Virus record (IMG/VR): IMGVR_UViG_3300033407_000067 | Location: 1-37,618 of that record | Direction: 5' to 3' (one strand) | DNA: 37,618 nucleotides | Source of the DNA: a virus | Lineage: Duplodnaviria; Caudoviricetes | Shown: piece by piece, positions 4,472 through 22,331 of the stretch | Position numbering within the stretch: position 1 is the stretch's first letter | Layout of the letters: the number at the start of each line of letters is the position of its first letter | Made by a program: the position numbers and the translations under genes | Notes under the pieces: generated by a model | Seen by the model: only the letters and a program-made list of their open reading frames with translations | Told to the model about the DNA's origin: nothing | The model's database searches: none

Positions 4472-5782
4472 GTGACTAAAGTTGCGAAATTGCGAGAGAA
4501 GAAAGCGGCGCTGGTCGCGGACATGCGGGCGCTGCTGACTGCAGCGGAGACGGAGGACCGTGATTTGTCCGCCGAGGAATCCGCGACGTACGACGACGGC
4601 CTTGCCGCCATCGCGAAACTGGACACAGAGATCGGTCGTCTGCAGGCGCTGGAGGCCGCGGAGGCCGCGCTCGACACCCCGCAGCCGTCCGCCGCGTCCC
4701 GTTCAGCCGCCCTGCCGAGCCCCCCGCCCGGCCCGGAGGCGTCACGGGAGTTTGAGTCGTTCGGCGAGTTTGTGCACGCGACACGGTTTCGGCCGAACGA
4801 TCAGCGCCTGGCGAGCCTGTACCAGGATTTTGACCAGCACTCCGAGCAGCGCATGGACACCGGTTCCAGCGGCGGTTTTATGGTCCCCGAGCAGTTCCGC
4901 GCGGGGCTGCTGTCCGTGGACCCGACCGAGGCAGTCGTCCGTCCGCGTGCGACAGTGATTCCCGCGGGTACCCCGCCGGACGCCGCGATCAGTATGACCG
5001 CGCTGGACCAAACGGGGGACACCCCGGACAACATCTATGGCGGCATCACTGTGGCTAAGACCGGTGCGGTTGAGGGCGGTGACGTCTCAGTTAACGAGTC
5101 GGATTTTGACCTGCGCCAGATCAAACTGGAGCCGCACGAGTTCGCGGGGTTCACCACGGTTACTGACAAGTTGCTCCGCAACTGGACCGCAGCCAGCTCA
5201 CTGCTCGAGACTCAGTTTCGGCGCGCTATGATGGCGTCGGACGATCGAGAGTTTTTCAATGGCAACGGCATCGGTGGCCCCCTGGGCTACCTCAACGCCG
5301 GGGCGACGTACGACGTCACCCGCGAAACGTCCAACACGATCACCTACACCGACGTGACCGAGATGCTGGCGCGCCTGCTGATGCGCGGGGGCTCGCCGAT
5401 CTGGGTGGCGTCGCAGTCGATCATGACTACGCTGCTGCGCATGCGTAACCCGCAGGGCTCGCCGTACAACGGCGACGGGGCACTGATTTTCCAGCCGAGC
5501 GTCGTGCCCGGCGTACCGGCGATGCTGCTGGGCTACCCTATCGTGTGGCATGAGCGTGCATCTGCGCTGGGCAGCGCGGGCGACCTGTCACTGGTCGACC
5601 TGTCGTATTACCTGATCAAGGACGGCAGCGGCCCGATCATCGCCAGCTCGGAACACGTCAAATTCACCACCAACAAGACGGTATTCAAGATCCTCTGGAA
5701 CGTGGACGGCCAGCCGTGGCTGACCGCACCGCTCAAGCAGGAAGGCGGGTACGAAGTGTCGCCGTTCGTGGCGCTGAACTAA
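4472..5782 (+). CDS. Major capsid protein, HK97 fold with coiled-coil delta domain
   Basis: Helical N-terminal scaffold region, GGFMVPEQF, LLGYPI and GDLSLVDLSYYLI motifs; GTG start behind GGAGGG. Confidence 0.93.
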   Translation: MTKVAKLREKKAALVADMRALLTAAETEDRDLSAEESATYDDGLAAIAKLDTEIGRLQALEAAEAALDTPQPSAASRSAALPSPPPGPEASREFESFGEFVHATRFRPNDQRLASLYQDFDQHSEQRMDTGSSGGFMVPEQFRAGLLSVDPTEAVVRPRATVIPAGTPPDAAISMTALDQTGDTPDNIYGGITVAKTGAVEGGDVSVNESDFDLRQIKLEPHEFAGFTTVTDKLLRNWTAASSLLETQFRRAMMASDDREFFNGNGIGGPLGYLNAGATYDVTRETSNTITYTDVTEMLARLLMRGGSPIWVASQSIMTTLLRMRNPQGSPYNGDGALIFQPSVVPGVPAMLLGYPIVWHERASALGSAGDLSLVDLSYYLIKDGSGPIIASSEHVKFTTNKTVFKILWNVDGQPWLTAPLKQEGGYEVSPFVALN

Positions 5783-5809
5783 CACAGTTAAATCAGGAGC
5801 TTATGGGCC

Positions 5810-6187
5810 ATGAACAAACTGTCAGAGATCATCAACGTCTCAGATGCTGCGGACTGGGTGCCGATCGCGCTCTATACGCAGTTCACCGGATTCGGCGTCA
5901 TCGTGGACGCCGACGACGGGGAGGGTGTCACTGTCCAGCTGCGTAAAGCCACCAGCTCGGCTGGTGCTAACGCGGCGGACCATGGCGATGCTGTCACCGT
6001 GTCCTCAACCGACACAAACGTGACAGTTACCGCTATGACCTCCGCGTTCGCCGGGGACCTCGGCGAAACGGCAGGCGGCGTCGCGTATACCCACGTGTCC
6101 TGCACCATCACCGCAGCGGGCTCGCCCGCACCGGGTGAGACTACCTATGGCGGAGTGATTCGGTCTGATGGCCGGTTCAGCGAGTGA
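5810..6187 (+). CDS. Probable capsid decoration/accessory protein
   Basis: 125 aa, beta-rich and Thr/Ala/Gly-rich, AGGAG RBS, directly after the major capsid gene; function inferred from position. Confidence 0.55.
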   Translation: MNKLSEIINVSDAADWVPIALYTQFTGFGVIVDADDGEGVTVQLRKATSSAGANAADHGDAVTVSSTDTNVTVTAMTSAFAGDLGETAGGVAYTHVSCTITAAGSPAPGETTYGGVIRSDGRFSE

Positions 6188-6953
6188 CGACCGCTACACG
6201 GTACGGAGACCGTTTCTCGATCGGCGCACCGGGCTAACTCTGCCCGCGGGTGCGCCGTTTGTCGACCACACCCGCTACGCGCAGATGCTGCGTGACGCGG
6301 GGATAATCGACCCAGCGACGGTCCCGCCCGCCCGCCCGCAGCTTGATATTTTCCCACCAGACCGCTGGGTCGACGACACCGTCGCGATCATCGCTGGGGG
6401 GGCCAGTCTCAAATCCGAAAAACATCTGCCCCTGCTCGACGGCGTCAGCACCATCGTGGTTAATGACGCGTATCGGCTAAAACCAGATGCGGACATTTTA
6501 TACGCTGCGGACTACGCCTGGTGGGAGCACCATGGGTACGTGCCCGAGTTCGGCGGGCAGCGCTGGACGCAGCACCGCGGCACGACGGAGTGGGCCGCAC
6601 GGGCGCGGGAGCGGGGGTTATTCGTGGTCGAGTCCCGGATGGATTGCACGAGTCTGTCGATGGACCCGGCAGTCATACACACCGGGGCGAACTCCGCGTT
6701 TCAGGCGCTCAATTTAGCGGTGCTCGGCGGTGCTCGGCGCGTCCTCCTGCTCGGTGTCGATCTCAAGGGGCCACATTGGTTCGGGGACCACCCGACTGGG
6801 CTCAACCGCACCAGCCCGTACCCGGTGTTCAGGGCCTCGTTTGAGGCCGTAGCGCCGCAGCTCGCGGAAATTGGCGTCGAGGTTGTAAACTGCTCGAGGA
6901 GCTCGGCCCTGCAGTGTTTTCCGAAAATGACGCTCCGCGCCGCACTCAAATGA
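6168..6953 (+). CDS. Maf/DUF115/sialyltransferase-like Rossmann protein with small N-terminal domain
   Basis: VAIIAGGASL, IVVNDAY, DILYAAD..WW, GANSAFQALNLA...GARRVLLLGVD. Confidence 0.65.
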   Translation: MAGSASDDRYTVRRPFLDRRTGLTLPAGAPFVDHTRYAQMLRDAGIIDPATVPPARPQLDIFPPDRWVDDTVAIIAGGASLKSEKHLPLLDGVSTIVVNDAYRLKPDADILYAADYAWWEHHGYVPEFGGQRWTQHRGTTEWAARARERGLFVVESRMDCTSLSMDPAVIHTGANSAFQALNLAVLGGARRVLLLGVDLKGPHWFGDHPTGLNRTSPYPVFRASFEAVAPQLAEIGVEVVNCSRSSALQCFPKMTLRAALK

Positions 6954-7597
6954 CCGTCGAGTACCTCCCCGTCGCGCATCACCACGAGTCTGTCATCATT
7001 GTCGGCAACGCCCCCTCGGCGCGCCCCCTCACTACGCTCGCGTGTCCGGAGGCATCAGCGGTCATCGCGGTCAATGGCGCGGTTGAGTGGCTGCCGCGAG
7101 CGGACTACTGGTTTACGCTAGACCCTGACACGCGCAATCGCCGACGGATGCGGGAGCAGCGCCCAGGCACGTACTACTACGCAGCTGTGCCCCCCGAGTT
7201 CGGGCAGCGCGACGCACGGCTGCCGGTATGGCGGATGCCCCCCGAACCGCGTGTGCACTGGCTGCGACGCCGCATCGGATCCGGACCGCTATCCAGCCGA
7301 CGCGGGCTATCAGTGGACCCCGCGGCGGTCAACACGGGGAACTCAGCCTATGGTGCCCTGGGCCTGGCTTTGCATATGGGCGCCCGCCGCGTCGCGCTGT
7401 TCGGCGTGCAGGCGGACGGGGACGGGCGGATAACGGGCGGTCGTCCGGGCGACCTGGCGCATCTGCCGGAGCTGTTCGCTAGCGCGTTGCCCCAACTGCA
7501 CATCCGTGGTATTGATGTCGTAATCGCGGGCAAGTCACGAATCGACGGTTTCCCGCGCATGGGTGTTGAGGAGGCCCTCCGATGGGTTGCAGGATAG
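6950..7597 (+). CDS. Second Maf/DUF115/sialyltransferase-like protein
   Basis: VIIVGNAPS (cf. GNGPS of GT42 sialyltransferases), IAVNGA, DYWFTLDP, TGNSAYGALGLA..MGARRVALFGV; ATGA-coupled to the upstream paralog. Confidence 0.62.
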   Translation: MTVEYLPVAHHHESVIIVGNAPSARPLTTLACPEASAVIAVNGAVEWLPRADYWFTLDPDTRNRRRMREQRPGTYYYAAVPPEFGQRDARLPVWRMPPEPRVHWLRRRIGSGPLSSRRGLSVDPAAVNTGNSAYGALGLALHMGARRVALFGVQADGDGRITGGRPGDLAHLPELFASALPQLHIRGIDVVIAGKSRIDGFPRMGVEEALRWVAG

Positions 7598-8229
7598 GAT
7601 CGCGACTGGTGCAGACGACCGCACCAGCAGCTGACGTCATGACCCTCGCCGAGGCGCGGGCGCAGTGTCGAGTCGTGCCATACGGATCTCCCGTGGCGCA
7701 CGACGACGACGACCTGATTACGCGGCTGATCGCAGTCGTGACGGACGAACTGGATGGTATCGATGGGTGGCTCAACCGAGCGCTGATCAACCGCACGTTG
7801 CAGTACGCCCTGGACGGGTTCCCGCCGTGCAGCAACCGCATATACCTCCCCCTGACGTCCCCGACGACGGATGACGCCGCCACGCCGATCAGCTCAGTCG
7901 TGTATACGGACTCGAACGGTGACGCGCAGACGCTGGTCGAGGATACCGATTTTATTGTGGAAAAACGCAACGACCCAATATACATCGAGCCCGTCTACGG
8001 CAAATCCTGGCCCGCAATCCGGGCCGGAACGAACGCGGTGACGATCACGTACACCGCCGGGTATGGCGCCGCGGCGTCAGACATCCCGGAGGCGATCCGT
8101 AGCTATATGTTCGTGCGGCTCGGGCAGCTGCATGAATTCCGCGAGCTGGTAGTCGCGGGGGTGACGGTTGCTGAGGTCCCGTTCCTGCGCGACAGCCTGG
8201 AAAACAAACGCGGCCGGAGGCCCTGGTGA
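7582..8229 (+). CDS. Head-tail connector (gp6 / phiE125 gp8-like adaptor)
   Basis: TLAEARAQCRV...DDDLI..LI, RALI, V.ITYTAGYG.....IPEAIR; exact start uncertain. Confidence 0.88.
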   Translation: MGCRIGSRLVQTTAPAADVMTLAEARAQCRVVPYGSPVAHDDDDLITRLIAVVTDELDGIDGWLNRALINRTLQYALDGFPPCSNRIYLPLTSPTTDDAATPISSVVYTDSNGDAQTLVEDTDFIVEKRNDPIYIEPVYGKSWPAIRAGTNAVTITYTAGYGAAASDIPEAIRSYMFVRLGQLHEFRELVVAGVTVAEVPFLRDSLENKRGRRPW

Positions 8230-9026
8230 TGGAGTCAGTAGCCCGCATCTTCGTCGGCTGTGCGCCGAATCGGGAGGACGCCGAATCACAGGCAGTACTC
8301 GAGTACTCGATCCGTAAACATGCTAGCTGCCCCGTGGTGATCACGTGGATGAAACTGCGTCGCGATGATCCGATTTATGATGGCTGGCGGACCGAAAACT
8401 GGCCGACGCCGTTTTCGGGGTTTCGCTGGGCGGTGCCGGAGCTGGCCGGGTTCCGAGGCCGAGCGATCTATATGGACTCGGATGTCATCGTGCTGCGCGA
8501 CGTGGCGGAGCTGATCAACATGCCGCTCGGCGAGGGCAAACTGCTCGCCGCAAAATCCGCTCGGCGCCTGTGCGTGTCGTTATGGGACTGCGACCGAGCT
8601 GCCGCGCTGGTGCCTCGGATCGAGGACCAGAAACGGAGCCCCGATACGCACCTGATGATGCAGACGAAAATGCGCGGCAGCGCGCACGTGGTGCAACCGT
8701 TCGTCGGCAGCAACTGGAATAACCTCGACGGCGAGCCCAGCGAGCTGCCTGTCGGGGCGCTGCACTATACGTCTATGCCACACCAGCCCCACGTACCCCG
8801 CGCTCGTGCCCGCCTGGCACGATCAGGCTGGAAACACTGGTTTGACGGCGCCGCGAAACCGCACTGGAACACAGCGGTTGTAGAGCTGTTCGAGCAGATG
8901 CTCGCGGAGGCGATTGAGGCCGGGCACACCCCGGAGTCGTACTGCGCAGATCCGATCTACGGGGACTATCGCAAACGGTCGCTGGCCGCAATGAATGGTG
9001 CGGTACCGCACTGGGGGAGGTCATAA
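8226..9026 (+). CDS. GT-A glycosyltransferase (GT8-like)
   Basis: RIFVG...VLEYSIRKHAS, TPFSGFRWAVP, RAIYMDSD (DxD), WNNLD, LHYT. Confidence 0.82.
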   Translation: MMESVARIFVGCAPNREDAESQAVLEYSIRKHASCPVVITWMKLRRDDPIYDGWRTENWPTPFSGFRWAVPELAGFRGRAIYMDSDVIVLRDVAELINMPLGEGKLLAAKSARRLCVSLWDCDRAAALVPRIEDQKRSPDTHLMMQTKMRGSAHVVQPFVGSNWNNLDGEPSELPVGALHYTSMPHQPHVPRARARLARSGWKHWFDGAAKPHWNTAVVELFEQMLAEAIEAGHTPESYCADPIYGDYRKRSLAAMNGAVPHWGRS

Positions 9027-9676
9027 TGGTTGCGGTTGCGTGTGTGTGGGTCGGGACCGGGTATGGTGTCGAGTACGTCCAGCGGCTGCGCAACATGGTG
9101 CGACGGCATCTGCGATTAGAGCACCGGTTCATATGCCTGACGGATAAACCCGAAACGCACATCGACGGCGTCGATTTTGTGGACATCCGCCACCACAAAT
9201 GGCCGGGCTGGTGGTCAAAAATGGCGCTGTTCGATCCGGCCCTGCGGGGCATGTCAAACTGCGTCTATTTCGATCTGGACACCGTGATCGTTGGCGACAT
9301 TACCCCGCTGTTCGACTGTCGCGATTTCGCAATCTGTGAAAATTTCACGCGGGCTGCGGGGCACCCGACGTACCCGTGCTCCTATGGCTCCTGCGTCATG
9401 TACCTGCCCCTCGGGTTTGGGCGTCGAATTTTTCAGCGGTTTGAGGCTGACGCTGACGCGTTGATGGCTCGCCACGCCCAGTACGGCGATCAGCGCCTGA
9501 TAGAGGAGTACTACCCGTTTGCCACGCGTCTACAGCGCGTTATGCCGAGAGGATTTTTTGTCGGCCGTCGTGAGTTTTCGGACGGGGTGCCACCCGACGC
9601 CAGCGTAATGGTGTTCGCGGGGCCCGTAAAACCGCATAACACGGCGCACCCGTGGGTGCAGGAGCACTGGAGATGA
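9026..9676 (+). CDS. GT-A glycosyltransferase (nucleotide-diphospho-sugar transferase)
   Basis: VACVWVG..Y..EYV.RL.NMV.RHL, FICLTD, GWWSKMALF, YFDLDTVI (DxD), GDQ, F.G..KP. Confidence 0.82.
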   Translation: MVAVACVWVGTGYGVEYVQRLRNMVRRHLRLEHRFICLTDKPETHIDGVDFVDIRHHKWPGWWSKMALFDPALRGMSNCVYFDLDTVIVGDITPLFDCRDFAICENFTRAAGHPTYPCSYGSCVMYLPLGFGRRIFQRFEADADALMARHAQYGDQRLIEEYYPFATRLQRVMPRGFFVGRREFSDGVPPDASVMVFAGPVKPHNTAHPWVQEHWR

Positions 9677-10287
9677 TTAAAAACGGGCGGCAGTTCGGGA
9701 CCAGCCTACAGGACATCCGAGCGGATCATATCGAGCGGTACCGGTTCGCCGTGCGGATCGCGGAGCAGTCCTGCGAGGATGGCCCGCCGATCGGCACGGT
9801 GCTGGACGTCGGCGCCGGGACCGGGTACGGCGCGTACCTGATGGCGCAACGCGGTTACGCGGCAACCGCAGTGGAGATCGACGCGGCCGCGCATGCGCAC
9901 GGCGAGCAGCATTTCGCCCATCCCGGCGTGCAGCGCCTCAACTGCGACGTCCGCGAGATGCTGCCGGGCGTCTACGATATGACGACGTGTTTCGAGGTGC
10001 TAGAGCACGTCGACGACCCGGTCGAGCTGCTGGGCGCTATCCAGAGCCCACGGCAGTTGTTGATCTCCTCTGTGCCGAATGAGGTGGTGGTGCCGTTTGA
10101 CGCACCGGGCACGCACCGGGACCACAAACGCCATTTCACGCCCGCCGAGTTCCAGGCGCTGCTGGCGGCGGCAGGGTACGACATTGTGGAAATGGGCAGC
10201 CAGCGCGATAAAATCGGGGTGGGGGCTCAGGTGCGTCGGGGCGATACGGGGGGCCGCACGCTAGTAGCGGTTTGCCGAGCGTTATGA
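9673..10287 (+). CDS. Class I SAM-dependent methyltransferase
   Basis: HIERYRFA, motif I VLDVGAGTGYG, FEVLEHV, SVPN, H.RHFT; type common in glycan loci; ATGA-coupled. Confidence 0.88.
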   Translation: MIKNGRQFGTSLQDIRADHIERYRFAVRIAEQSCEDGPPIGTVLDVGAGTGYGAYLMAQRGYAATAVEIDAAAHAHGEQHFAHPGVQRLNCDVREMLPGVYDMTTCFEVLEHVDDPVELLGAIQSPRQLLISSVPNEVVVPFDAPGTHRDHKRHFTPAEFQALLAAAGYDIVEMGSQRDKIGVGAQVRRGDTGGRTLVAVCRAL

Positions 10288-10871
10288 TTGTCAGTCACAA
10301 ATGGCGGTTTATATTTCTCAAAACCCGCAAAACGGCAGGGTCATCGATCGAGGCGGCGCTAGCCCCCCTCCTCGGCCCGGAGGACCTCATAACCGGGTCG
10401 GCCCGTGACGGGACACCCCGACGCAACTGCCAAGACCGCATGACGGGGCATTGGGGCTGGCGACGGGTACGCGATTTTATAGGGGCCGAAACATTTGATC
10501 AATACCGGCGGGTATGCGTCGAGCGCGACGCATACGATAAATCGGTGAGCGACTGGCTGTACCACCGCGACGTCTTGAGCACCACGACGCTGGGCCTGGC
10601 CGAGTACATCCAGCAGCGCCGCCCCAGTGACTGGACGCGGTACGCTGAGGGGGACCAGCCCGTCGCTACGGTCCTGCGGTTTGAAAACCTCGCGGCCGAG
10701 TTCGGCGACTGGTGCGCGGCGACCGGCCTGCCCCCGGTCGGCATCGGCGCGTACCAGCTCAAACGCAATGCCTGCCGGGGGGTGGCGCGGGACTATCACG
10801 ACGCCGCCAGTTGCGCGGCCATTGCCGATGTGTTCGCGCGCGAGCTGGAGTACTACGGGTATCGCCTATGA
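10284..10871 (+). CDS. Sulfotransferase (Sulfotransfer_2-like)
   Basis: MIVSH..RFIFLKTRKTAGSSI (5'-phosphosulfate-binding loop), ERDAYDKSVSDW (3'-PB-like), LRFENL..EF, terminal YGY. Confidence 0.8.
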   Translation: MIVSHKWRFIFLKTRKTAGSSIEAALAPLLGPEDLITGSARDGTPRRNCQDRMTGHWGWRRVRDFIGAETFDQYRRVCVERDAYDKSVSDWLYHRDVLSTTTLGLAEYIQQRRPSDWTRYAEGDQPVATVLRFENLAAEFGDWCAATGLPPVGIGAYQLKRNACRGVARDYHDAASCAAIADVFARELEYYGYRL

Positions 10872-11695
10872 GGATCATAGCCTACGAACCAGGCTACAAC
10901 GAAAAACACTGTCGAGTGCTGCGCGCCCTAGCCGCGGGCATCCCCGGCTGCGAGGTCCGCCCGCTCGGGCAGTATGAGCCGTGCGACATCGCAATCATTT
11001 TCGGGGCGTACAAACGGGCGTATGCAAAAACGCTGCCAAAACTCGATATCCTCCAGCGCCACCACGGGCGGCAGCTGCTGATGGTCGAATCCGCGTTTGT
11101 CAAACGGGGCGAGTACTACCAGGTCGGCTGGGGCGGCTATGCTGGCAACGCAGATTTTAACACCCCCATACGCATGCCGTCGGATCGCTGGGACCGACTC
11201 GCGGTACCGGTCAGTCCGTGGCGCCGCCGCAGTACGGGACCGATCGTCGTGTGTGGTCAGCTCCCCTGGGACACGCAGGTGCAGGATGTCGACCACCGCG
11301 GGTGGTGTCGCGAGATGATCACTCGGCTCCATCGGGCGGGCCACGACGCCATTTTCGCGCCTCACCCGCGGATGCGTGACCTCGACGCGTACGGAGTGGC
11401 CCGAAAATACTACCGGCCTGGCCAGACACTGGCGGCGCTCCTCAAATCAGCCCGCGCCGTGGTAACATGGAACTCGACGTCGGCGGTCGATGCGATACTG
11501 CGGGGGGTCCCCGCGATCACCAGCCATCCTAGCTCGATCTCGCGAGCGGTCAGTCAACACACCGTCGCGGATGTTGAGCGGCTGGAGTACCCGGATCGGT
11601 CGGCGTGGCTGGCGAGGCTGGGGTATGCGCAGTGGACGCTCGACGAGATGGCGTCCGGCGAGACGTGGGACCACCTCAACCGGGAGTACGTATAA
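10868..11695 (+). CDS. KpsS/KpsC-like (capsule-synthesis, beta-Kdo transferase-like) GT-B protein
   Basis: VVCGQLPWDTQV (QxxxD), FAPHP (HP motif), VVTWNSTSAVDAILRGVP; ATGA-coupled start at 10868. Confidence 0.7.
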   Translation: MRIIAYEPGYNEKHCRVLRALAAGIPGCEVRPLGQYEPCDIAIIFGAYKRAYAKTLPKLDILQRHHGRQLLMVESAFVKRGEYYQVGWGGYAGNADFNTPIRMPSDRWDRLAVPVSPWRRRSTGPIVVCGQLPWDTQVQDVDHRGWCREMITRLHRAGHDAIFAPHPRMRDLDAYGVARKYYRPGQTLAALLKSARAVVTWNSTSAVDAILRGVPAITSHPSSISRAVSQHTVADVERLEYPDRSAWLARLGYAQWTLDEMASGETWDHLNREYV

Positions 11696-12039: not shown

Positions 12040-12482
12040 TGGCGACTGGAGCAGTAACGGGCACTCCACAGTTGCTGCGCCAGCTGCGCCAGCTGCAGAA
12101 CAGCGTGCAGGCTCGGGCCGTGCGTAACGCGCTAGGCGCCGCGGCCCGTATCGTCGCGAAACGCGCCCGGCAGACCATACCCGTCGGGACTCAGGCGCAC
12201 CGCACCTATCGCGGTGTGCTGGTCGCGCCCGGATTCGCACGTCGATCCGTCGTGGTGCGCACGTCGATCAACAGACGGACTGGGCGCATAACCGCAGTAG
12301 TCGGGGTGCGGGCACAGGCATTTTACGCCACGCAATTCGTCGAGCTGGAGCGCGGCAACTCCAGCCGCACCGGCAGGCCCTGGCTGCGCCCCGCGTTTGA
12401 GGAGACCCAGCCGCAGCAGATCGCGGCGATTGATCGTGCCCTGGCGCGGGCCATACTGAGGGCTGTTAAAAATGCTGGTTGA
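12039..12482 (+). CDS. HK97 gp10-like neck/tail protein
   Basis: V.G...L.RQL.QL, FYATQFVE and RPWLRPAFE; TGATG-coupled. Confidence 0.82.
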   Translation: MATGAVTGTPQLLRQLRQLQNSVQARAVRNALGAAARIVAKRARQTIPVGTQAHRTYRGVLVAPGFARRSVVVRTSINRRTGRITAVVGVRAQAFYATQFVELERGNSSRTGRPWLRPAFEETQPQQIAAIDRALARAILRAVKNAG

Positions 12483-12867
12483 AGAGGCGCTGTATTCCCT
12501 GCTGACGGCAGACGCGGAGGTATCCGCCATCGTCGGCACCCGCGTGTTCCCGGGTGTCGCACCGCAAGATGTCGCGGCCCCCTACGTGCTGTACCGTAAA
12601 ACCGGGCGCGACCGGCGGTTTCTCCCGTGCGGTACGGACGGCACGATGGTGACGTCGTTCCAGATCGACTGCTATGCGGCGACGTATCTACAGTCCGTGC
12701 AGCTGGCACAGGCGGTAACCGATCGGCTAGAGCCATACAGGGGCGCTACTGGCTCGCCCGCGATTACGCTGGTACACTGGTTTCTAGACCGAGAGTTCGA
12801 TCTCTCAGACATTGAGCCCGGCCTGTTCCGCCAGTCCTGCGACTGGCGCGTATGGCACCACGACTAA
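12472..12867 (+). CDS. Tail completion/terminator protein (DUF3168-like)
   Basis: LYSLL.AD..V.AIVG.RVFP..APQ....PY, FQIDCYA; position before tail tube. Confidence 0.85.
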   Translation: MLVEEALYSLLTADAEVSAIVGTRVFPGVAPQDVAAPYVLYRKTGRDRRFLPCGTDGTMVTSFQIDCYAATYLQSVQLAQAVTDRLEPYRGATGSPAITLVHWFLDREFDLSDIEPGLFRQSCDWRVWHHD

Positions 12868-12882: not shown

Positions 12883-13311
12883 ATGCCCACGATTGCGGAT
12901 TCAACAGTTGGCAATTTTAAAATGTACATCGGCGACGCCGCGTCCCCCGAGTCATTCGACGAGTGGTGCGAAATTTTCAACATCCCGGAGTTTGGCCAGA
13001 CGAACGGGCTGGTCGACGTCACCGCGTTTTGTAATGGCGGCTTCCGCCAGTATAAAGGGGCACTCGCGGATGGCCTCGAGGTCGAGTTTCAGGGTAACCA
13101 CGTCCCGAACTCAACTGTGCAGAAGCGACTGCGCGATGCTGTCATCAACAAATCAAACATTAACATTCGTATCGATGACGAGAATATCAGCCCGACGGAG
13201 CAGTACACGCTCAACGTGGTGTCCCTCAGCTGGCGTATCGGCCCCGTCGTGGACAACCGCAACACGTTTATTTTCGGCTGTAAAATCAACACGATTACGG
13301 TGCCCGCGTAA
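12883..13311 (+). CDS. Major tail tube protein
   Basis: IGD.ASPESF, VDVT, ..GLAD-like (KGALADG) motif; GAGG RBS; canonical position. Confidence 0.82.
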   Translation: MPTIADSTVGNFKMYIGDAASPESFDEWCEIFNIPEFGQTNGLVDVTAFCNGGFRQYKGALADGLEVEFQGNHVPNSTVQKRLRDAVINKSNINIRIDDENISPTEQYTLNVVSLSWRIGPVVDNRNTFIFGCKINTITVPA

Positions 13312-13640: not shown

Positions 13641-13948
13641 CCGATGCGGAGCGGTTTGAGCATCGGTTAGCTCTCGCCCTGGGCCGGACAGTACAGGAGC
13701 TGCGCGACACGATGGGCGCGGCAGAGTACATGCGATGGGGGGAGTACTATCGGTGCGAGCCCTGGGGCGCGACTCGAGATAACATGCACGCGGGCATCAT
13801 AGCCGCGGCACTCACGAACCCTCACCGTCGGCGTGGCACTCGGGCGCTGACGCACGATGATTTTATGCTGCGAGATTCGCGGACGCAGCACGCCGATCAG
13901 CGGCGGAAATTCCGCGAGTACCTACGGTCAATGGCGGTTAAAAAATAA
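13622..13948 (+). CDS. Frameshift extension of the tail chaperone (gpGT/gpT-like part)
   Basis: -1 frame reads GKRPELTDAERFEHRLALALGRTVQELRDTMGAAEYMRW..YY..EPWG, a gpT-like pattern. Confidence 0.8.
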   Translation, partial: GKRPELTDAERFEHRLALALGRTVQELRDTMGAAEYMRWGEYYRCEPWGATRDNMHAGIIAAALTNPHRRRGTRALTHDDFMLRDSRTQHADQRRKFREYLRSMAVKK

Positions 13949-16059
13949 TGGCAGATCTGGCGAAACTTCTTGTGCGGCTGGAGGGTGACAACATCAAGCT
14001 GATGAAGTCGCTCGACCAGGCCGACAAGCGCATTTCGCGGTTCGAACAGTCGGCCAACCGCAGCGCCGCCGCGTTCTCCCGCGGATTCAAGCGGGCCGTT
14101 GCGTCCGCAGCAGCGGCGGTTTCCGTGTTTTCCCTAGGTCGCATGGTCGAGGAAGCGATCGGACTCGAAGAGGCCAACGCTAAAGCAGCGCGCGGCCTCG
14201 GCCTGACATCGGCCGCTCTGAACGAGTACAAATTCGCCGCCGGTATTGCATCGGTATCGACGAAGGAACTGGAACTCGGGCTGCGCAACCTCAACAAACG
14301 CATGAGCGAGGCAGCGGGGGGCACGAAAACCGCGTCGAATATATTCGACACCCTGGGCGTCTCGGTAACGGACGCGTCTGGTAAAATCCGTAACGTCGAT
14401 GACGTGTTCGGCGATCTGATTGATCGGTTCTCCGCGGCGGAAAATAACGCAAACCGGACTCGAATCGCGCTGGAACTGTTTGGGCGGGCGGGGCAGAAGT
14501 TGATCCCGCTACTGGTCAGCGGCCGCGAGGAATTCGCTCGGCTGCGCAGTGAGGCCCGGCGTCTCGGACTGGTGCTGGACGGTGAGACATCCGCGGCCTC
14601 CGAGCGGTTTTTGGACAACCTCACGATTCTGCAGGCGCAGCAGCAGGGGTATAAAAACCAGCTCGCAACTCAGCTACTGCCGGCACTTGAGGATTTGTCG
14701 GGCCTCATGATCGAGCTGGCCGCAGACCACGAGGCGGTCGCGACGCTGGGTACCGTGCTGGCGGGGGTGCTCAAAGGGGTCGCGACTACGGCGCTCGCAC
14801 TCGGCACGACTTTTGCTAACGTCGGCCGGGCGATCGGCGGGCTGACCGCAGCGGCGCAGGCGGCGATCGAGGACACATCGATCAGCCTAGGCGGTGTCCT
14901 GCGCGGGTTCGCTCGCGGCGGGCTGGACGACGCGATCGCCGGATCCGTGGAGACCGGTTTCGGACGGGCCAGTACCATCATCGACCAGTTTACGGAGGAC
15001 AATGAGCGTGCGACACGCGAGGTCGAGGAGCGACTCGGCAAACTGTGGTCAAACGGTTTTAACGCCGCAGGGCAAGACGCCGCCGAGGTAGCCGCCCAGA
15101 TGCGCGAGCTGCGCGAGGAGTTAGGGCTGTCCGATCTCGGCGCGATACCGGTCGGAGTGGACGTTGATACACAAAGGGCCGAGGCCGCAGCGAAACAGAT
15201 CTCGAGGGTTATCGATCAACTGCGGCTACAGGTCGACACACTCGGCATGTCTGCGGACGCGGCGAAACGGTACGAACTGGGGCTGAAAGGCGCGTCGACG
15301 GAACAGCTGAAACTGGTAGAGTCGTTGCAGGAGCAGCTCCGGGCAGATGCTGAACTGCAGGCGTCACTCGATCGCGAGGCGGAGTCGCTCGAAACCGTTC
15401 GATCCGCGTGGTCCGATCTACGGGACCGCATGTCTGACATTGGGCCGGTCGCCCGCCAGTACATCGCAGATATCGGGGCGCTGAAACAGGCGCACGATGC
15501 GGGGGTGCTCAGTACCGACCAGTTCCGCGAGGCACTCGAAAAACTCGCGGATGGGTATACCTCGGCCGCGTCGGGCGCAGGGTCGTTCGAGGACCAGATG
15601 CAGCAGCTCAGCAAACGGATAGGGGATAACCTCACGCAGAGCCTGGAGGATTTCCTGTTCGATCCGATCGAGAACGGGTTCGACTCGATCGAGAAAAATT
15701 TCTCAACTCTGCTGCGGCGGATGGCGGCGGAGATCGCCGCGCGGGAGCTGATGAAACAGCTGTTCAAGGGGCTGACCTCGTCCGGCCTCGGCGACGTCGC
15801 GAACCTGCTCGGGGGCGCGTCCCTGGGCGCTCGCGCTACCGGCGGTCCGGTCACCAGCGGGACTCCATATCTCGTGGGCGAGCGCGGCCCGGAGCTGTTC
15901 GTACCGGCCGGTAGCGGCACGATCGTGCCCGCACATGACACGGCGGCGAGCGGCACGCGGCCGATCGTCATCAACGTGTCCACCCCGAACGCCGATTCGT
16001 TCCGCCAGTCCTCCCGCCAGATCGCAGGGGACGTTAAGCGCAAGCTGGGGGCGACCTGA
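13948..16059 (+). CDS. Tail tape measure protein
   Basis: 703 aa, Ala/Leu-rich helical; C-terminal RATGGPV...PYLVGERGPELFVP. Confidence 0.93.
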   Translation: MADLAKLLVRLEGDNIKLMKSLDQADKRISRFEQSANRSAAAFSRGFKRAVASAAAAVSVFSLGRMVEEAIGLEEANAKAARGLGLTSAALNEYKFAAGIASVSTKELELGLRNLNKRMSEAAGGTKTASNIFDTLGVSVTDASGKIRNVDDVFGDLIDRFSAAENNANRTRIALELFGRAGQKLIPLLVSGREEFARLRSEARRLGLVLDGETSAASERFLDNLTILQAQQQGYKNQLATQLLPALEDLSGLMIELAADHEAVATLGTVLAGVLKGVATTALALGTTFANVGRAIGGLTAAAQAAIEDTSISLGGVLRGFARGGLDDAIAGSVETGFGRASTIIDQFTEDNERATREVEERLGKLWSNGFNAAGQDAAEVAAQMRELREELGLSDLGAIPVGVDVDTQRAEAAAKQISRVIDQLRLQVDTLGMSADAAKRYELGLKGASTEQLKLVESLQEQLRADAELQASLDREAESLETVRSAWSDLRDRMSDIGPVARQYIADIGALKQAHDAGVLSTDQFREALEKLADGYTSAASGAGSFEDQMQQLSKRIGDNLTQSLEDFLFDPIENGFDSIEKNFSTLLRRMAAEIAARELMKQLFKGLTSSGLGDVANLLGGASLGARATGGPVTSGTPYLVGERGPELFVPAGSGTIVPAHDTAASGTRPIVINVSTPNADSFRQSSRQIAGDVKRKLGAT

Positions 16060-16745
16060 TGGCCCGGTTTATCGATGTGTACCTGGCGGACTGCGTGCCC
16101 GGCTACCCGTGCGCTAGCACCCCCCGGTTTTCGACGGCGATCGTAGCGGTGGACAGTGGGGCCGAGCGGGCGCGGCAGCGCTGGGAGCACCCCCTGCACC
16201 GGTTCACGCTGCCCGAGGCCGTTCGGGACCATGACGTATTCGAGGCGATCCACGACCACTGGCTGGTCATGGCCGGGCCCGCGCGTACGTTTCCTTTCCG
16301 GGATCCACTCGACTGCGCATCAGTGGCGTTGACGCAGCCAGTGACGGACGACTCGCTGCTGCCGACGATCTCCGGCACAGATCAGACGCTCGGGACGGGG
16401 GACGGCACAACCACGAATTTCCAGCTCGTGAAAACATACACACGCGGCCCCGGTACGTATACGCGGACCATCTATCATCCGGTCGTCGCGTCCGCGTCGG
16501 TTACCCTGGATGGCAACGATCCGCTGTCGTACTCACCCGCGTTCACGTACGCGATCGACCGGGACACGGGCGTCGTGACATTCGACACGCCACCGAATGC
16601 GGGTATGATCGTGAGAGCGGGGTTTTATTATGATGTCGAGGTGCGGTTTGAGAGCGACGACGCGTTCGACGGCATTGTGCGGACGTATGGCATTTCTGGC
16701 TTCGCGGATTTATCCCTAATTGAGGTTCGGCCCTGCGCCGATTGA
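16059..16745 (+). CDS. Distal tail protein, DUF2460 / GTA-type
   Basis: P.FST.IV...SG.E.R...W, F.FRDP.D, GTGDG....FQLVKTY, AGF.YDV.VRF. Confidence 0.88.
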   Translation: MARFIDVYLADCVPGYPCASTPRFSTAIVAVDSGAERARQRWEHPLHRFTLPEAVRDHDVFEAIHDHWLVMAGPARTFPFRDPLDCASVALTQPVTDDSLLPTISGTDQTLGTGDGTTTNFQLVKTYTRGPGTYTRTIYHPVVASASVTLDGNDPLSYSPAFTYAIDRDTGVVTFDTPPNAGMIVRAGFYYDVEVRFESDDAFDGIVRTYGISGFADLSLIEVRPCAD

Positions 16746-16753
16746 GGTGAGGT

Positions 16754-17812
16754 ATGGCTATTCGATGGGCGGAAAGTTTCGATTATTATGGGTTCACAGA
16801 AACAAACATGTCAGACGGTCTGTGGTCCTCGGCGTTGGGGACCTTGACGACGAGTTTCGCTCGAACAGGCACACACAGTTACCGGCCCACCACCGCCGAT
16901 TCCGCCAACCGCCGTATTTTCGGCGACGATCTAACAACATTCGGGATGGGGTTCGCCCTATACCTGACCGCGCTACCCGTACTCAACACTACGAACTACT
17001 TCGTATTCTGGGCATCCGAGGGGGCGAATGGCGCGTTCAGCCAGTTCACGATAAACATCACGTCGACGGGGACTGTGCAGGTCCGCAATCACTATCAGAG
17101 CGGGCCGATTGTAGCCGAGTCTGCGCAGGGGGTAATCACCGCGGAGACACACCAGCACATCGAGTTCAAAGCGACCGTCGGGAACACAGGCTCAATCGAG
17201 GTCCGCGTAAACGGCGTGACTGTCATAAACGAGGCGTCCGTGGACCTCCTGTACTATGAGGCGAACCCCACGGTTGCACAGTTCGGGATGTCCCGTGCCA
17301 CCTCGGGCGATGGGTCGGGGACGTACATCGACGATCTCATCATGTGGGATACGACGGGGTCCGGCAATAACGATTTCATCGGCGACAAACGCGTGTTTAC
17401 ACTTTTCCCGGACGGCAACACCGCGCAGGCCGATTTTTCGGTTGTCGGCGCGGCGTCTGGGTATGAGGCGATCGACGAGGCGGACCCGGACGATGACACC
17501 ACGTACATCTATGAGGACACGACGGGGAGCCCCGCCCCCAGCTCCGAGTTTACCCTCGACGACCTGCCCGCGGGCGCCGCGAACATCGTAGCGGTCATCC
17601 CGGTCGTCAGGGCACAAAAAGATGAGGCAGGCGATGCTAATTTAACCGTTGGGCTGGTATCCGGGGCATCTGAGGTCAATGGCGCGGACAACCCGATGAC
17701 GACCGAGTGGACGTATCGCGCAGACGTTTTCGAAACAGACCCGGCGACCGGTGCGGCATGGACCCCAACGGCAGTTGATGCGGTGCAACTCAAACTCGCT
17801 CGGACTCTGTAA
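16754..17812 (+). CDS. Virion tail-tip accessory protein (beta-sandwich/lectin-like, putative receptor binding)
   Basis: 352 aa, acidic and beta-rich, W.ESFDYY start, HIEFK...GSIEVRVNG, YIDDL.MWD; GAGG RBS; fold is inference. Confidence 0.55.
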   Translation: MAIRWAESFDYYGFTETNMSDGLWSSALGTLTTSFARTGTHSYRPTTADSANRRIFGDDLTTFGMGFALYLTALPVLNTTNYFVFWASEGANGAFSQFTINITSTGTVQVRNHYQSGPIVAESAQGVITAETHQHIEFKATVGNTGSIEVRVNGVTVINEASVDLLYYEANPTVAQFGMSRATSGDGSGTYIDDLIMWDTTGSGNNDFIGDKRVFTLFPDGNTAQADFSVVGAASGYEAIDEADPDDDTTYIYEDTTGSPAPSSEFTLDDLPAGAANIVAVIPVVRAQKDEAGDANLTVGLVSGASEVNGADNPMTTEWTYRADVFETDPATGAAWTPTAVDAVQLKLARTL

Positions 17813-17817
17813 CGGCG

Positions 17818-18939
17818 ATGGCCCGCCCGGAGGTAACGCAGGCCCCCGTACTCGTCGTCGCGGCTCCTGACGCGCAGACGCAGGTAACACAGGCCCCCGT
17901 ACTCGTCGTCGCGGCTCCTGAGGCTCCTGACGCGCAGACGCAGGTAACGCAGGCCCCCGTCCTGGTGCTCGGTGAGATCATCGAAAACGAGGTACGTGTC
18001 ACACAGGCCCCGGTCCTGGTCATTACCGGTTTTGATGCTCAGGTACGTGTCACACAGGCCCCCGCCCTGGTGCTCGCAGACTGGTCCCCGTGTTTCGCGC
18101 AGCAGGCCACCGTGTGGATTATCACGAGGACCGACGGCGAGGTATACGGTTTTACGGACCACGACCAGACGCTGACGTTCCGCGGCGTGTCCTGCAAACC
18201 GTGCGACTCGGTCAGTGGCTCGGCCGTTCAGCTGTCGGCGATCGTCGGGCAGTCCGGCAGCGTCGAGCTACGGGGTATCCTGGCATCTGGGGGCGTCGAC
18301 GAGGTCGAGCTGTACAGCGGCCTGTTCGACGGGGCGAAACTAGAGGTATGGCTAGTCCCGTGGGGCGATAACGAGACGGGCGAGATACCGCGGCGATTGA
18401 TGGGCGGGACCACCGGTGACAGCACGCAGGGCGAGATCAGTTTCTCACAGGAGATCCTGTCGGATCAGCAGTACCTGCAGCAGCACGCCCTGCCCGAAAC
18501 GTACACTGCCGATTGCCCATATGAGTTCGGCAACTCCAATGACTCACGCTGCCCGGTAGACCTCGGGCCACTCGTCGTATCCGGCAGTGTGACGGGGCTA
18601 GCCGTGCCTGACGCGATGACGAATTCCACACGGCGGATTTTCACGGATTCAACCCGTGTCGAGGCGGACCGCGAGTTTGAGCTCGGTCAGATCACGTGGA
18701 CCAGCGGCGACAATGCGGGGCAGACGTCATTCGTGAAGGATTTTTCGGGCGGCGCGTTCGTCCTGTGGGAGCCTCTGTTCTACCCGATCGAAATCGGCGA
18801 CGGTTACGACGCGACGCCCGGATGTGCGAAGACAAAATCTGCGCACCTGACGTACAACGCCGATCTGGTTGATTTCGGTGGGTACCCGGACATCCCCGGT
18901 ACCGACGCATTCAGGAGGGCACCAGATGCCAAAGAATGA
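17818..18939 (+). CDS. Baseplate hub protein, DUF2163/BR0599 type, with N-terminal repeats
   Basis: W.ITR.DG..YGFTDHD..L, GLFDGA, C...FG...RC.VDL, W.SG.NAG, GC.K, F.GYP.IPG. Confidence 0.85.
   Translation: MARPEVTQAPVLVVAAPDAQTQVTQAPVLVVAAPEAPDAQTQVTQAPVLVLGEIIENEVRVTQAPVLVITGFDAQVRVTQAPALVLADWSPCFAQQATVWIITRTDGEVYGFTDHDQTLTFRGVSCKPCDSVSGSAVQLSAIVGQSGSVELRGILASGGVDEVELYSGLFDGAKLEVWLVPWGDNETGEIPRRLMGGTTGDSTQGEISFSQEILSDQQYLQQHALPETYTADCPYEFGNSNDSRCPVDLGPLVVSGSVTGLAVPDAMTNSTRRIFTDSTRVEADREFELGQITWTSGDNAGQTSFVKDFSGGAFVLWEPLFYPIEIGDGYDATPGCAKTKSAHLTYNADLVDFGGYPDIPGTDAFRRAPDAKE
17830..18075 (+). repeat. Five coding repeats VTQAP[VA]LV[VLI]
   Basis: Core (acg/aca)caggcccc recurs five times; units 1 and 2 are near-identical (51 and 60 bp, the second with a 9-bp internal duplication). 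Confidence 0.9.
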
Positions 18940-19375: not shown

Positions 19376-21726
19376 GCGGATCTAGCGTCGGGCAGATCGT
19401 CGGCGGCGTAGTCGGCGGTGTCATCGGGTTTGTCTCGGGCGGTCCGGCCGGGGCGGTTAAGGGGTTTTCGATCGGCTACACCCTGGGCGGTATCATCAAC
19501 CCGCCGGACGGGCCGACGCTGGTCGGTCCGCGACTCGACGATCTGCGCGTTACCACGTCCACGTACGGCGCTGTTCAGGGGCTGGTGTACGGCCCGAAAA
19601 ACCGGGCATCGGGGAATGTCATCTGGTCAACCGGGCTAATCGAAGCGGTCAAAAAGAAAAAATCGGGTGGCAAGGGCGGCGGCGGGACGACCACGAAAAC
19701 GTACTCCTACTCCGTGTCGTTCGCGCTCCAGATCAACGCTCGGCCGAGTGCCCGGTTTAGCCGCATCTGGATGAATGGGAAACTAGTTTTCGACGCGGTC
19801 GGAATATCCCTGCCCGCCGTCGATCTAGTCAACGGGCAGCTGATCGACAAATCGTACGGTACTCATGTGGTTATGGACGAAGTCCGCTTCTGGCCTGGCT
19901 CCACCACCCAGATCGCAGACCCACTGATCGAGACATACCTCGGCGCGGGCGGGACCCCGGCGTTCCGTGGCCGGACGTACCTGACATTTAAAAATCTCCA
20001 GCTGGCGGATTTCGGCAACCAGATGCCGTACGCGATTGAGGTCGAACTGGTCGCAGACGAGGAGATAACCCTCGGGCAGGTCATACAGGACCTCACCGAT
20101 CGATCGGGCGTCGGTATCGTCAGCTGCGCGAACCACCGCGACCAGGTCGAGGGATATATGATCGGCGCGTCGATGTCCGTCTCTGCGGCCCTGGTCCCTC
20201 TCGCCACCGCGTATAATCTCGACATCGCCGAGCAGGGTGGACAGATCCGTTTCGTCAGCCGTCTGCGCGGGATGCGCGGGGTGATACCGACAGACGAGAT
20301 GGGCGGACGGGACGCAAACGCCGGGCCGATCGAGCCTGCACGGTACGCTAACCTCCGGTCGATCGGGCTACCGAAACAGGTCGCGCTCTCGTTCGCCGAC
20401 TCGGATTTCGACTACCAGACCAGCACCGTCAGCGCGATCCGGGATGGGGGGGACACGAGCAGTAAAACCGAGGTCGAGCTGGCACTGACACTGGATGCGG
20501 ACGCGGCGCGGCGTATCGCTGATCGGCTCCTGTGGGCGCCCTGGGCAGCTCGCCGCACCGTATCGTTCAGTACGTCCGACCAGTGGATGGGGCTAGAGGC
20601 GGGGGACTCAACCGGCGTACCGTTTGGCGAGCAGGCCCTCCCCTATAAAATCACGAGTAAAACCCGCGGTCATAATGGCGTCATCCAGTGGGAGGCGCAG
20701 CGGGATGACCACGAGATCTACAGCTCCGACGCGCTCGGGGCTGCGACGACGCTGCCGAGCAACGCCGTTGCGTTCCCCGGCGAGACTCGACTGCTGTTAC
20801 TCGACACTCCGATTTTCCGCGATCTGGACGACGACTCGGGGTTTTACTGGGCGGTCGATGCGGGGCAGTCTGGCTGGCGCGGCGCGTCAGTACAGCGATC
20901 GTCAGACGGCGGCGTGACGTACAACGAGTTGAGTGAGGCGTACCTGCGAGCCGAGACGGGCGACGTCGCGACCGCGATCGGGGATGGGCCGACAGCATCA
21001 TGGGATGACGGCAATGAGCTGGTCGTCGAGCTGCTCTACCCGAGCCATGCGCTCGAGTCCCTGTCCGACGAGGCGGTCCTGAGCGGCGGCAACGCGGCGT
21101 ACTACGGGCCAGCTGACGGGCAGGGCGGCGAGATCCTCCAGTTCGCGGACGCGACGTTGATCGCGACCAACACGTACCGGTTGACCAGGCTGTTGCGCGG
21201 GCGACTCGGCACCGAATCTGCAGTCGGCACGCACGGAGCTAACGAGGTATTTGTGGCTATAGCTCCGGATCGGATTAGCCGCTCGGATTTCGGCGCGGGC
21301 GACTGGGAGCGGGAGCGCCAGTATAAAGGCGTGTCAATTCTGACCGATATCGCGGACGCGACCGAACTCGATTTTACTAACGCCGGGGCGGGCAAAAAAC
21401 CGTACTCTGTGGTGCACCCCCTCGGGGTCCGGGACGGTAGTAATAACCTCACAATCACGTGGACGCGGCGATCCCGGTATCGTGCGCCCGGCCTGGGATA
21501 CGGTCCGGTCCCGCTGGGCGAGACGACCGAGCAGTATGAGATCGACATACTCGACAGTCCCGGGGGGACCGTACTGCGGACCATCACGGCGACCTCGGAG
21601 ACGGCGAGTTACACAGCGGCCCAGCAGACGACAGACGGGCTGACGCCGGGCGATTTAGTTGATATGGTAATCCACCAAATGAGTGACAGTATTGGGCGGG
21701 GTTTCCCCCGCGTAGCGAGGATATGA
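19372..21726 (+). CDS. Tail tip / host-specificity protein (GTA gp15-like, Phage-tail_3)
   Basis: Gly-rich N-terminus, GPRLDDL.V..S.YG, GNVIW, GGKGGG, PAFRG, LADFGN..P, LLRGRLGTE, WTRRSR; ATGA-coupled start 19372. Confidence 0.88.
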   Translation: MSGSSVGQIVGGVVGGVIGFVSGGPAGAVKGFSIGYTLGGIINPPDGPTLVGPRLDDLRVTTSTYGAVQGLVYGPKNRASGNVIWSTGLIEAVKKKKSGGKGGGGTTTKTYSYSVSFALQINARPSARFSRIWMNGKLVFDAVGISLPAVDLVNGQLIDKSYGTHVVMDEVRFWPGSTTQIADPLIETYLGAGGTPAFRGRTYLTFKNLQLADFGNQMPYAIEVELVADEEITLGQVIQDLTDRSGVGIVSCANHRDQVEGYMIGASMSVSAALVPLATAYNLDIAEQGGQIRFVSRLRGMRGVIPTDEMGGRDANAGPIEPARYANLRSIGLPKQVALSFADSDFDYQTSTVSAIRDGGDTSSKTEVELALTLDADAARRIADRLLWAPWAARRTVSFSTSDQWMGLEAGDSTGVPFGEQALPYKITSKTRGHNGVIQWEAQRDDHEIYSSDALGAATTLPSNAVAFPGETRLLLLDTPIFRDLDDDSGFYWAVDAGQSGWRGASVQRSSDGGVTYNELSEAYLRAETGDVATAIGDGPTASWDDGNELVVELLYPSHALESLSDEAVLSGGNAAYYGPADGQGGEILQFADATLIATNTYRLTRLLRGRLGTESAVGTHGANEVFVAIAPDRISRSDFGAGDWERERQYKGVSILTDIADATELDFTNAGAGKKPYSVVHPLGVRDGSNNLTITWTRRSRYRAPGLGYGPVPLGETTEQYEIDILDSPGGTVLRTITATSETASYTAAQQTTDGLTPGDLVDMVIHQMSDSIGRGFPRVARI

Positions 21727-21926
21727 CAATGCCACAGCAGGTACCATTGCGGGTACTGGCCCGCGCCACCGACCGCCACGGCGAGGACGTCCCCATAACG
21801 GACGTACGGCACATGCCGATGGGCAGGATCGGGGAGGGCGGCAGCATCTCGGTGCTGTTTGTAGGCGGAGAGCGTTTCGCCGCCCGAGCATTCGTGATCA
21901 AAAATCGCGAGTTGGTGGAGGTGTAA
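21723..21926 (+). CDS. Small hypothetical protein
   Basis: ATGA-coupled to the tip gene, fills the gap and supplies the RBS for the next gene. Confidence 0.55.
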   Translation: MTMPQQVPLRVLARATDRHGEDVPITDVRHMPMGRIGEGGSISVLFVGGERFAARAFVIKNRELVEV

Positions 21927-21929
21927 CCC

Positions 21930-22331
21930 ATGACGACAACTGCGGATCTGGGATTGCCGGAGATCGCATCCCAGCAGAGCCAGCCTGAGGTAACCCATAA
22001 TGAGGCGCTGCTGCTGCTGCAGGCGCTGCTCAACGGGGCTGCGTCGATCGGTGATAACACCCCGCCCGGTAGCCCGAGCGCGGGGGACATCTATGTCCTC
22101 GGCACATCCCCGACAGGGGCATGGGCGGGCCGGGCGAACTGTATCGCGATCTACTCCGGGACCGCGTGGGATTTCATCCCGGGCGAGGACGACGCGGGGA
22201 CGCCGATTACAATGGGCGCACGGCAGGCGGGTATGCGGGCCTGGGTCCGCGATGTGCGGGCTCTGTACATCTGGACGGACACCGGCGCCAGCCCCGCGGA
22301 TTATGCGTGGGTCGACTACGCGACGTTGTAA
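21930..22331 (+). CDS. DUF2793-like tail fibre/adaptor protein
   Basis: LGLP.I...QSQ.EVTHNEAL..L.AL, PP.SP..GD.Y, PTGAWAG, W.F; GGAGG RBS. Confidence 0.85.
   Translation: MTTTADLGLPEIASQQSQPEVTHNEALLLLQALLNGAASIGDNTPPGSPSAGDIYVLGTSPTGAWAGRANCIAIYSGTAWDFIPGEDDAGTPITMGARQAGMRAWVRDVRALYIWTDTGASPADYAWVDYATL

Follow-up and report, generated by a model that had tools for sequence, protein, structure and literature searches.

Ser-Pro loops in the virion proteins of a tailed phage as candidate glycan acceptor tags for a co-encoded Maf-fold protein

The window analysed here is an entire virus record of 37,618 bases from an uncultured phage (Duplodnaviria; Caudoviricetes; IMG/VR record IMGVR_UViG_3300033407_000067), whose virion proteins carry inserted loops with the motif x-Ser-Pro (x mostly G, A or D) and whose head genes include one, at 6168-6953, with a predicted Maf-type glycosyltransferase fold. 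We consider it probable, from sequence comparison and structure models, that these loops are Ser acceptor tags at which the 6168-6953 protein would attach the first sugar of a phage-made glycan coat. The loops are likely sugar attachment sites because Ser-Pro (SP) in relatives mostly accompanies the Maf-fold gene among the head genes. A preliminary description of the window had proposed Gly-Ser-Pro (GSP) in surface loops as Ser tags for a co-encoded initiating transferase; the co-occurrence holds in relatives and a specific initiator candidate, 6168-6953, can be named, whereas strict GSP and the site at 5390 had to be given up.

The Ser-Pro motif in the window

Among the 48 genes defined in the window for motif counts, GSP is found only in virion proteins, with seven copies in six proteins and none in the remaining 42 genes. 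The copies are located exactly where the preliminary description had placed them, at 5390 and 5456 (capsid), 6119 (decoration protein), 7684 (connector), 12751 (tail terminator), 17525 (tip accessory protein) and 22068 (DUF2793 protein), and the near variants that it listed (TGASPAD, DAASPE, ENISPT and SYSPAF) are present as well. The codons differ between sites (GGCTCGCCG and GGCTCGCCC twice each; GGATCTCCC, GGGAGCCCC and GGTAGCCCG once each), as had been noted, and a DNA repeat was therefore ruled out as the origin of the motif. With 5000 within-protein shuffles as the null, the seven copies in virion proteins compare with 1.23 expected (P = 6e-4), and the absence of GSP from non-virion proteins, against about 1.8 expected, is not significant alone. 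The excess itself does not survive the post-hoc choice of the motif because the tripeptides REF (6 vs 0.54 expected) and EVR (7 vs 1.1) outrank GSP in the same scan. Within-genome statistics were dropped as proof for this reason, and the evidence must therefore come from relatives.

Co-occurrence with the enzyme gene in the same capsid lineage

The capsid lineage of the window was sampled with 80 loci carrying related capsids, annotated against the window proteins, and with 80 metagenome loci added later (relative loci and contigs in the comparison sets are labelled with L or P and a number). The 159 loci in the lineage included 66 with callable enzyme status, meaning either an enzyme match or a module read through the closure or terminator gene without one, and 55 remained after identical capsids were removed, 19 with a homolog of 6168-6953 and 36 without. 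Because close relatives of the window are among these rows, Fisher p values overstate their independence. SP was present at the capsid site 5456 in 12/19 relatives with the enzyme and 0/36 without, at the decoration site 6119 in 15/18 vs 0/32, at the connector site 7684 in 8/13 vs 1/36, at the terminator site 12751 in 3/11 vs 0/25 (p = 0.02), in tube loop 1 in 11/11 vs 1/21 and in tube loop 2 in 10/11 vs 0/21. The capsid site 5390, with 9/19 vs 14/36 (p = 0.58), is family-typical and is not retained as a tag. At 5456 and in the decoration protein, connector and terminator, the loops are insertions whose flanks vary and whose Ser-Pro is constant where an enzyme homolog is present in the module. 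Strict GSP was ruled out as the motif, since ASP, DSP, VSP, LSP and ISP fill the same loops. Several enzyme-less relatives keep a loop without Ser, namely AVTP (L015/L017) and TGTP (L038) at the connector site, VP (L038) at the distal tail site, and also ATPT in L341 and AEPE in L019; L015 and L017, short contigs read only as far as the closure gene, nest with the enzyme-bearing L009 (support 98). A tag-less clade with related capsids carries genes (L027:4685-6211, L034:11849-12598, L040:3543-4613, L041:4869-5621) that by eye resemble, presumably, a sialic-acid synthase, a cytidine monophosphate (CMP)-sugar synthetase and a CstII-like protein, the last with an intein-like insertion in some copies (509 vs 250 residues).

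Position of the sites on the particle

All sites lie on the plus strand. The major capsid protein (gene 4457-5782), of the HK97 fold, has its candidate tag (GSP, Ser335, 5456..5464) in an insertion of about eight residues within the A-domain hairpin, where the structure model is coil and its predicted local distance difference test score (pLDDT) dips to 66, between 91 and 86. The family-typical GSP at 5390..5398 is ordered (pLDDT 93) and directly precedes the core strand 184-187 of the same model. The 5456 hairpin aligns to the capsids of RcGTA (6TBA) and HK97, and we take it to be the A-loop. In SPP1, according to the available portion of one study, the A-loop points outward in hexons and inward in pentons (PMC6813328). 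The tail tube (gene 12883-13311) has a candidate tag ASP (Ser21, 12940..12948) in its beta1-beta2 loop, immediately before the profile position 23 that corresponds to lambda gpV residue 35, the end of the O-loop, which in lambda (residues 24-38) forms the outer tube surface according to the accessible text of PMC10721106; by this alignment, the first tube site would lie on an outer face. The second, ISP (Ser103, 13186..13194), is a candidate tag at a hairpin turn, in a three-residue insertion relative to gpV. The earlier suspicion that the SP motifs of the tube and the DUF2793 protein are family-typical proved wrong for the tube loops, which are among the best enzyme-linked sites, and right for the DUF2793 site 22068..22076 (gene 21930-22331), which is common across the family (GSP in 54/96 and SP in 71/96 homologs, counted irrespective of gene context) and is at most a possible tag.

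Further candidate tags are GSP in a loop of the putative decoration protein (Ser105, 6119..6127; gene 5810-6187, which has no Pfam or PHROG family and is assigned by position), GSP in an inserted loop of the head-tail connector (Ser36, 7684..7692; gene 7582-8229), GSP in the tail terminator (Ser95, 12751..12759; gene 12472-12867), YSP in the DUF2460 distal tail protein (Ser159, 16530..16538; gene 16059-16745), GSP in an insertion of the phrog_2448 tip accessory protein (Ser259, 17525..17533; gene 16754-17812) and ASP in an insertion near the DUF2793 C terminus (Ser121, 22287..22295). On few rows, SP at the 16530 site is shared with L001 and L004/L083, with VP at the same place in the enzyme-less L038, and the 17525 insertion is common to L004/L083 and absent in L038, L082, L411 and L412. 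The 22287 columns are gapped in 92-94 of 96 DUF2793 rows, and a separate SP insertion is seen there in one other homolog. The feature is real, one or two of the seven listed GSP sites are coincidental, and the four variant sites outside the GSP list likely belong to the feature.

Comparison across capsid lineages

The wider comparison used an enzyme alignment of 90 sequences (the window domain and 89 of 120 listed homologs), which fetched 80 viral and 45 genome loci, together with controls fetched with capsid queries from other lineages. Among the control scans, one capsid query returned no loci and another nine, a tip-accessory query returned three, one of them the window's own DNA, and a tail tube search for the control set gave no cultured-phage match. 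From 330 annotated loci, 162 had a capsid, a connector and a terminator or tube, and 105 modules (67 with the enzyme and 38 without) were left after the window, L001-L008 and L083 were dropped and the rest dereplicated at 90% capsid identity. SP ranked top of 400 dipeptides in the connector, terminator, tube, closure and decoration proteins of these modules (226 vs 43), with an observed-to-expected ratio of 1.79 with the enzyme and 0.70 without. GSP was seen 58 times with the enzyme against 9.4 expected (a ratio of 6.1) and 8 times without it against 4.8 (1.7); TP and PS were not enriched in the same proteins, and the terminase, portal, protease, chaperone and tape measure held 5 GSP against 18.4 expected. 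Nearest-neighbour pairs, which are not strictly independent, split 15 to 4 with one tie (p = 0.019).

The tags occupy non-homologous positions in at least four capsid lineages and use both Ser codon boxes (143 TCN and 81 AGY). The enzyme family is present in 47/51 modules with at least three SP, the next accessory genes being methyltransferases (31) and Capsule_synth-like genes (22), and in L012, L103 and L124, with 8, 5 and 5 SP, the Maf-fold gene is the sole recognised enzyme. Prophage loci of this type come from genomes whose labels include Alpha-, Beta- and Gammaproteobacteria as well as other groups. Among the loci with enzyme and tags from cultured environmental strains are L172 and L180 (Mesorhizobium) and L173 (Pseudoduganella). 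All 15 of the 15 proteins with C-terminal SP tails (some duplicates) belong to enzyme-bearing loci. Capsid, tube and closure proteins with short SP tails were seen in L088, L127, L136, L143, L188, L120, L141 and L228.

The Maf-fold gene and the enzyme cassette

The candidate initiating transferase (6168..6953, plus strand) belongs to the PmgO/phrog_4603 family, with a phrog_4603 match at an expectation value (E) of 4e-37 over positions 1-173 of 178 and homology to P1 PmgO at E 4e-22. Its model (pLDDT 96) matches the central CstII-like modified GT-A domain of Mafs, with the Maf glycosyltransferase 5MU5 at Foldseek rank 1 and also at rank 1 in VIA-align (Z 16.3, root-mean-square deviation 2.9, 179 aligned positions, 16% identity, covering Maf residues 260-511). 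Lower VIA ranks went to the diphosphokinase HPPK (Z 12.4), to thiamine pyrophosphokinases (TPK) below it and to sialyltransferases at ranks 3, 5, 6, 8 and 9, with 11.2 for a Campylobacter enzyme. In sequence searches, 6168-6953 missed the gathering cut-off of PF01973 (15.6 vs 34.6 bits, E 0.014), a family marked in many homologs, and the enzyme profile found weak CstII matches only in the Protein Data Bank (E 0.07). A shared fold alone shows no function; judged from its fold, the protein would be a protein O-glycosyltransferase. Its N terminus is a head-gene domain of about 55 residues, a small gene fused in frame at 6168-6340 that is a separate open reading frame after the decoration gene in L001-L008, L330 and L331. 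The same fusion occurs in P0002, another contig (66% identical), and the fused domain might tether the enzyme to the head.

Seven enzyme genes, at 6168-11695 and all on the plus strand, interrupt the head-neck operon. The candidate initiator is followed by its paralog (6950..7597; PmgP/phrog_2111 family, hhalign probability 99.3 to 6168-6953, P1 PmgP E 1e-33), which is likely a second sugar transferase. The remainder are a GT8-like glycosyltransferase (8226..9026; PF01501 E 6.5e-5, just below cut-off), a glycosyltransferase of the PmgQ/phrog_1962 family (9026..9676; phrog_1962 E 9e-32, P1 PmgQ E 3e-17), an S-adenosylmethionine (SAM) methyltransferase (9673..10287; PF13489 E 6e-15), a sulfotransferase-like protein (10284..10871; ESM Atlas feature score 0.97 and template modelling score 0.88 to PF03567 clusters, with no Pfam match of its own) and, from weak matches, a Capsule_synth-like putative glycosyltransferase (10868..11695; PF05159 E 0.04, and Atlas clusters of which 18% have PF05159), whose family members we take to be transferases of 3-deoxy-D-manno-oct-2-ulosonic acid (Kdo). 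NCBIfam named no enzyme besides generic methyltransferase models.

Gene order and other features of the window

From 5' to 3', the window carries terminase, portal, S49 protease, HK97-fold capsid, neck and siphophage tail genes, and the tail ends in a gene-transfer-agent-like tip (DUF2460, hub, NlpC/P60, Phage-tail_3 with Rcc01698_C, and DUF2793). The hub protein starts with five VTQAP-containing repeat copies (17818-18100), ahead of its Pfam domain. On the minus strand, two tandem paralogous proteins of a family not identified, with repeats of about 24 residues, are encoded at 34997-36147, and the product of 25650-26654, which has a long tail that is duplicated and rich in Pro and Ala, is flanked by genes that we labelled by eye as putative DNA polymerase and exonuclease genes. 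The minus strand also carries, at a distance from the tail genes, a class 3 lipase-like gene and an endolysin (34353-35000 and 36144-36632).

Interpretation and alternatives

In the proposed mechanism, the Maf-fold protein would add the first sugar to the Ser of exposed x-Ser-Pro loops in the cytoplasm, taking it from a host donor, probably a CMP-activated ulosonic acid, of which CMP-Kdo is the simplest candidate. A host donor is proposed because no gene for sugar synthesis was recognised in the window and because Kdo is among the sugars that Mafs can attach to Ser/Thr. The paralog and three other transferases may extend the glycan, the methyl- and sulfotransferase may cap it, and the resulting coat could mask the particle or tune adsorption. 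In its broadest form, the proposal is that a widespread and so far unrecognised class of proteobacterial phages glycan-coats the whole particle via a minimal stand-alone Maf-type transferase reading a two-residue Ser-Pro sequon, with tags gained and lost by short loop insertions along with the enzyme, and with a variable extending, methylating and sulfating cassette that diversifies the glycan; we see the chances of this broad form as evenly balanced. If true, phages would encode a sequon-based cytoplasmic O-glycosylation system that is also a compact protein-glycosylation tool, and virion glycosylation would be widespread in proteobacterial phages and prophages of the HK97- and lambda-like kinds, at sites predictable from sequence. 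By estimate, the enzyme pattern matches about 730 IMG/VR stretches. Since the proposal specifies the enzyme, the residue and a probable donor, it is testable with two genes; glyco-engineering could possibly also gain a small transferase and a portable tag from it.

Several observations weigh against this proposal. Tree-independent pairs within the window's lineage were too few for significance (three pairs, 2.7 vs 0.0, p = 0.25). On the capsid tree, seven independent pairs scored for at least two SP gave 1.9 in the same direction and 1.1 in the other (not significant), and connector SP gave 3.1 vs 0.0 (p = 0.25), while eight pairs on the portal tree gave 1.3 in the same and 2.1 in the opposite direction. 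In the pooled set, modules with and without the enzyme showed no significant difference in the presence of SP or GSP anywhere in the capsid, terminator or closure protein, and the whole-protein signal came from the connector and tube. Stricter dereplication weakens the pooled effect (Mann-Whitney p = 1e-10, 5e-4 and 0.019 at 90, 75 and 60%, with 50 vs 16 modules at 75% and 37 vs 9 at 60%), a single capsid neighbourhood (L241-L320) supplies most of the controls, and 'enzyme-less' mostly means that the gene is absent from a contig fragment. The enzyme family is also found without tags, in P1, PAJU2, S20, L261, L273, L301, L315, L270, L326 and L183, where these proteins hold either no SP, a single SP or no more SP than expected; the 22 annotated virion genes of P1 have 17 SP against 22.6 expected and no GSP. 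Some of the tag-poor enzymes group weakly in the enzyme tree (the PmgO grouping has a Shimodaira-Hasegawa-like approximate likelihood ratio of 82), which may hint at enzyme subfamilies with other acceptors. The most SP-rich module, L204, is without a Maf-fold match, in a record that is 64% complete and a search without positive control; an enzyme profile search of five whole records, also without positive control, gave 0/5. At L204:5533-11854 another cluster is present, with radical SAM, methyltransferase and two putative glycosyltransferase genes, and it is possibly another initiator for the same tag. The Maf fold itself also includes the diphosphokinases HPPK and TPK, and the words 'sequon' and 'consensus' are absent from the main text of a Maf preprint (10.1101/2020.06.03.131540).

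Three alternatives account for parts of this evidence. The same enzyme family could target the loops with a chemistry that is not a simple O-glycoside (e.g. phospho- or phosphodiester-linked), or the loops could be non-covalent docking sites, either for the enzyme itself or for some other protein of the particle. The second-best fold match, an MptE-type HPPK followed by thiamine pyrophosphokinases, and a Ser/Thr phosphatase gene between pmgP and pmgQ in P1 are in line with such chemistry, and SPP1 A-loops dock an accessory protein in the available portion of PMC6813328. However, the Maf match is clearly higher than that of HPPK and is joined by the sialyltransferases among the top ranks, the adjacent genes are glycosyl-, methyl- and sulfotransferases, and freely varying flanks and bare C-terminal tails suit a minimal acceptor over a binding surface; we regard this alternative as unlikely. 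We find it rather improbable that the loops are glycosylated with the first sugar coming from a host transferase or another phage gene, the Maf-fold protein only extending or capping the glycan. Such an arrangement would accommodate L204, with its many SP loops and different enzyme cluster, as well as the tag-less P1, PAJU2 and S20, and CstII and eukaryotic sialyltransferases of the same fold act on glycans. On the other hand, the tags are followed less closely by every other phage gene (47/51 vs at most 31), L012, L103 and L124 are tag-rich with the Maf-fold gene as sole recognised enzyme, and loci spread across Alpha-, Beta-, Gammaproteobacteria and others fit one host enzyme poorly.

Finally, x-Ser-Pro could be a sequence that favours turns and hitchhikes with the gene cluster by shared ancestry, with no functional link. 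Points in favour of hitchhiking are that the independent contrasts are small in number and do not reach significance, that G, S and P occur frequently in loop regions, that two of the sites (5390 and 22068) are typical of their families, and that the enzyme-bearing set was fetched mostly with the enzyme profile and the controls with capsid queries. The missing TP and PS excess, SP at unrelated positions in unrelated capsid lineages, the loops retained without Ser after enzyme loss and the nearest-neighbour split argue in the other direction. We judge hitchhiking to be very unlikely.

Comparison with known systems

To our knowledge, phage particles are generally held to be unglycosylated outside a few mycobacteriophages. 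In the latter, Freeman and colleagues are said to have described in 2023 glycans on C-terminal serines of the capsid and tail tube. The window does not match such reported C-terminal attachment, as its capsid ends in SPFVALN and its tube in ITVPA; the C-terminal SP tails of some relatives are reminiscent of it. Glycans on the capsid protein of mycobacteriophage virions (Che8 and relatives) are described in the accessible text of PMC11256854. Like these mycobacteriophages, the window represents a tailed phage encoding several glycosyltransferases (GT8-like, phrog_1962, phrog_4603, Maf fold), and the covalent glycan shield is proposed here from its genes. Unlike in mycobacteriophages, the candidate sites are internal x-Ser-Pro loops in as many as seven particle proteins, a Maf fold is predicted for the candidate initiator, and the genes are located inside the head-neck operon. 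No prior Ser-Pro sequon or Maf-like enzyme for phage particles was found in the literature searched, with most subscription papers and supplements outside the search.

Mafs transfer ulosonic acids in CMP-activated form, Kdo included, to Ser/Thr of flagellin according to the accessible text of the Maf preprint (10.1101/2020.06.03.131540). The 6168-6953 protein resembles these flagellin O-glycosyltransferases in its predicted fold, its weak PF01973 match and the Ser acceptor and CMP-sugar donor proposed for it. It differs in having a domain of about 200 residues without the other domains of Maf, within a 261-residue phage head-operon protein as opposed to a multi-domain protein of about 600 residues, and its substrates would be virion proteins with a short sequon implied. 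In coliphage P1, pmgO, pmgP and pmgQ are homologs of 6168-6953, 6950-7597 and 9026-9676, respectively, and are listed as non-essential in the available portion of PMC10695390; the P1 pmg region corresponds to L414:29592-32150. In contrast to the window, the virion genes of P1 are without SP excess and its pmg genes are described as having a 'putative morphogenetic function'. The glycan coat proposed here would provide a first hypothesis for these long-unassigned P1 genes.

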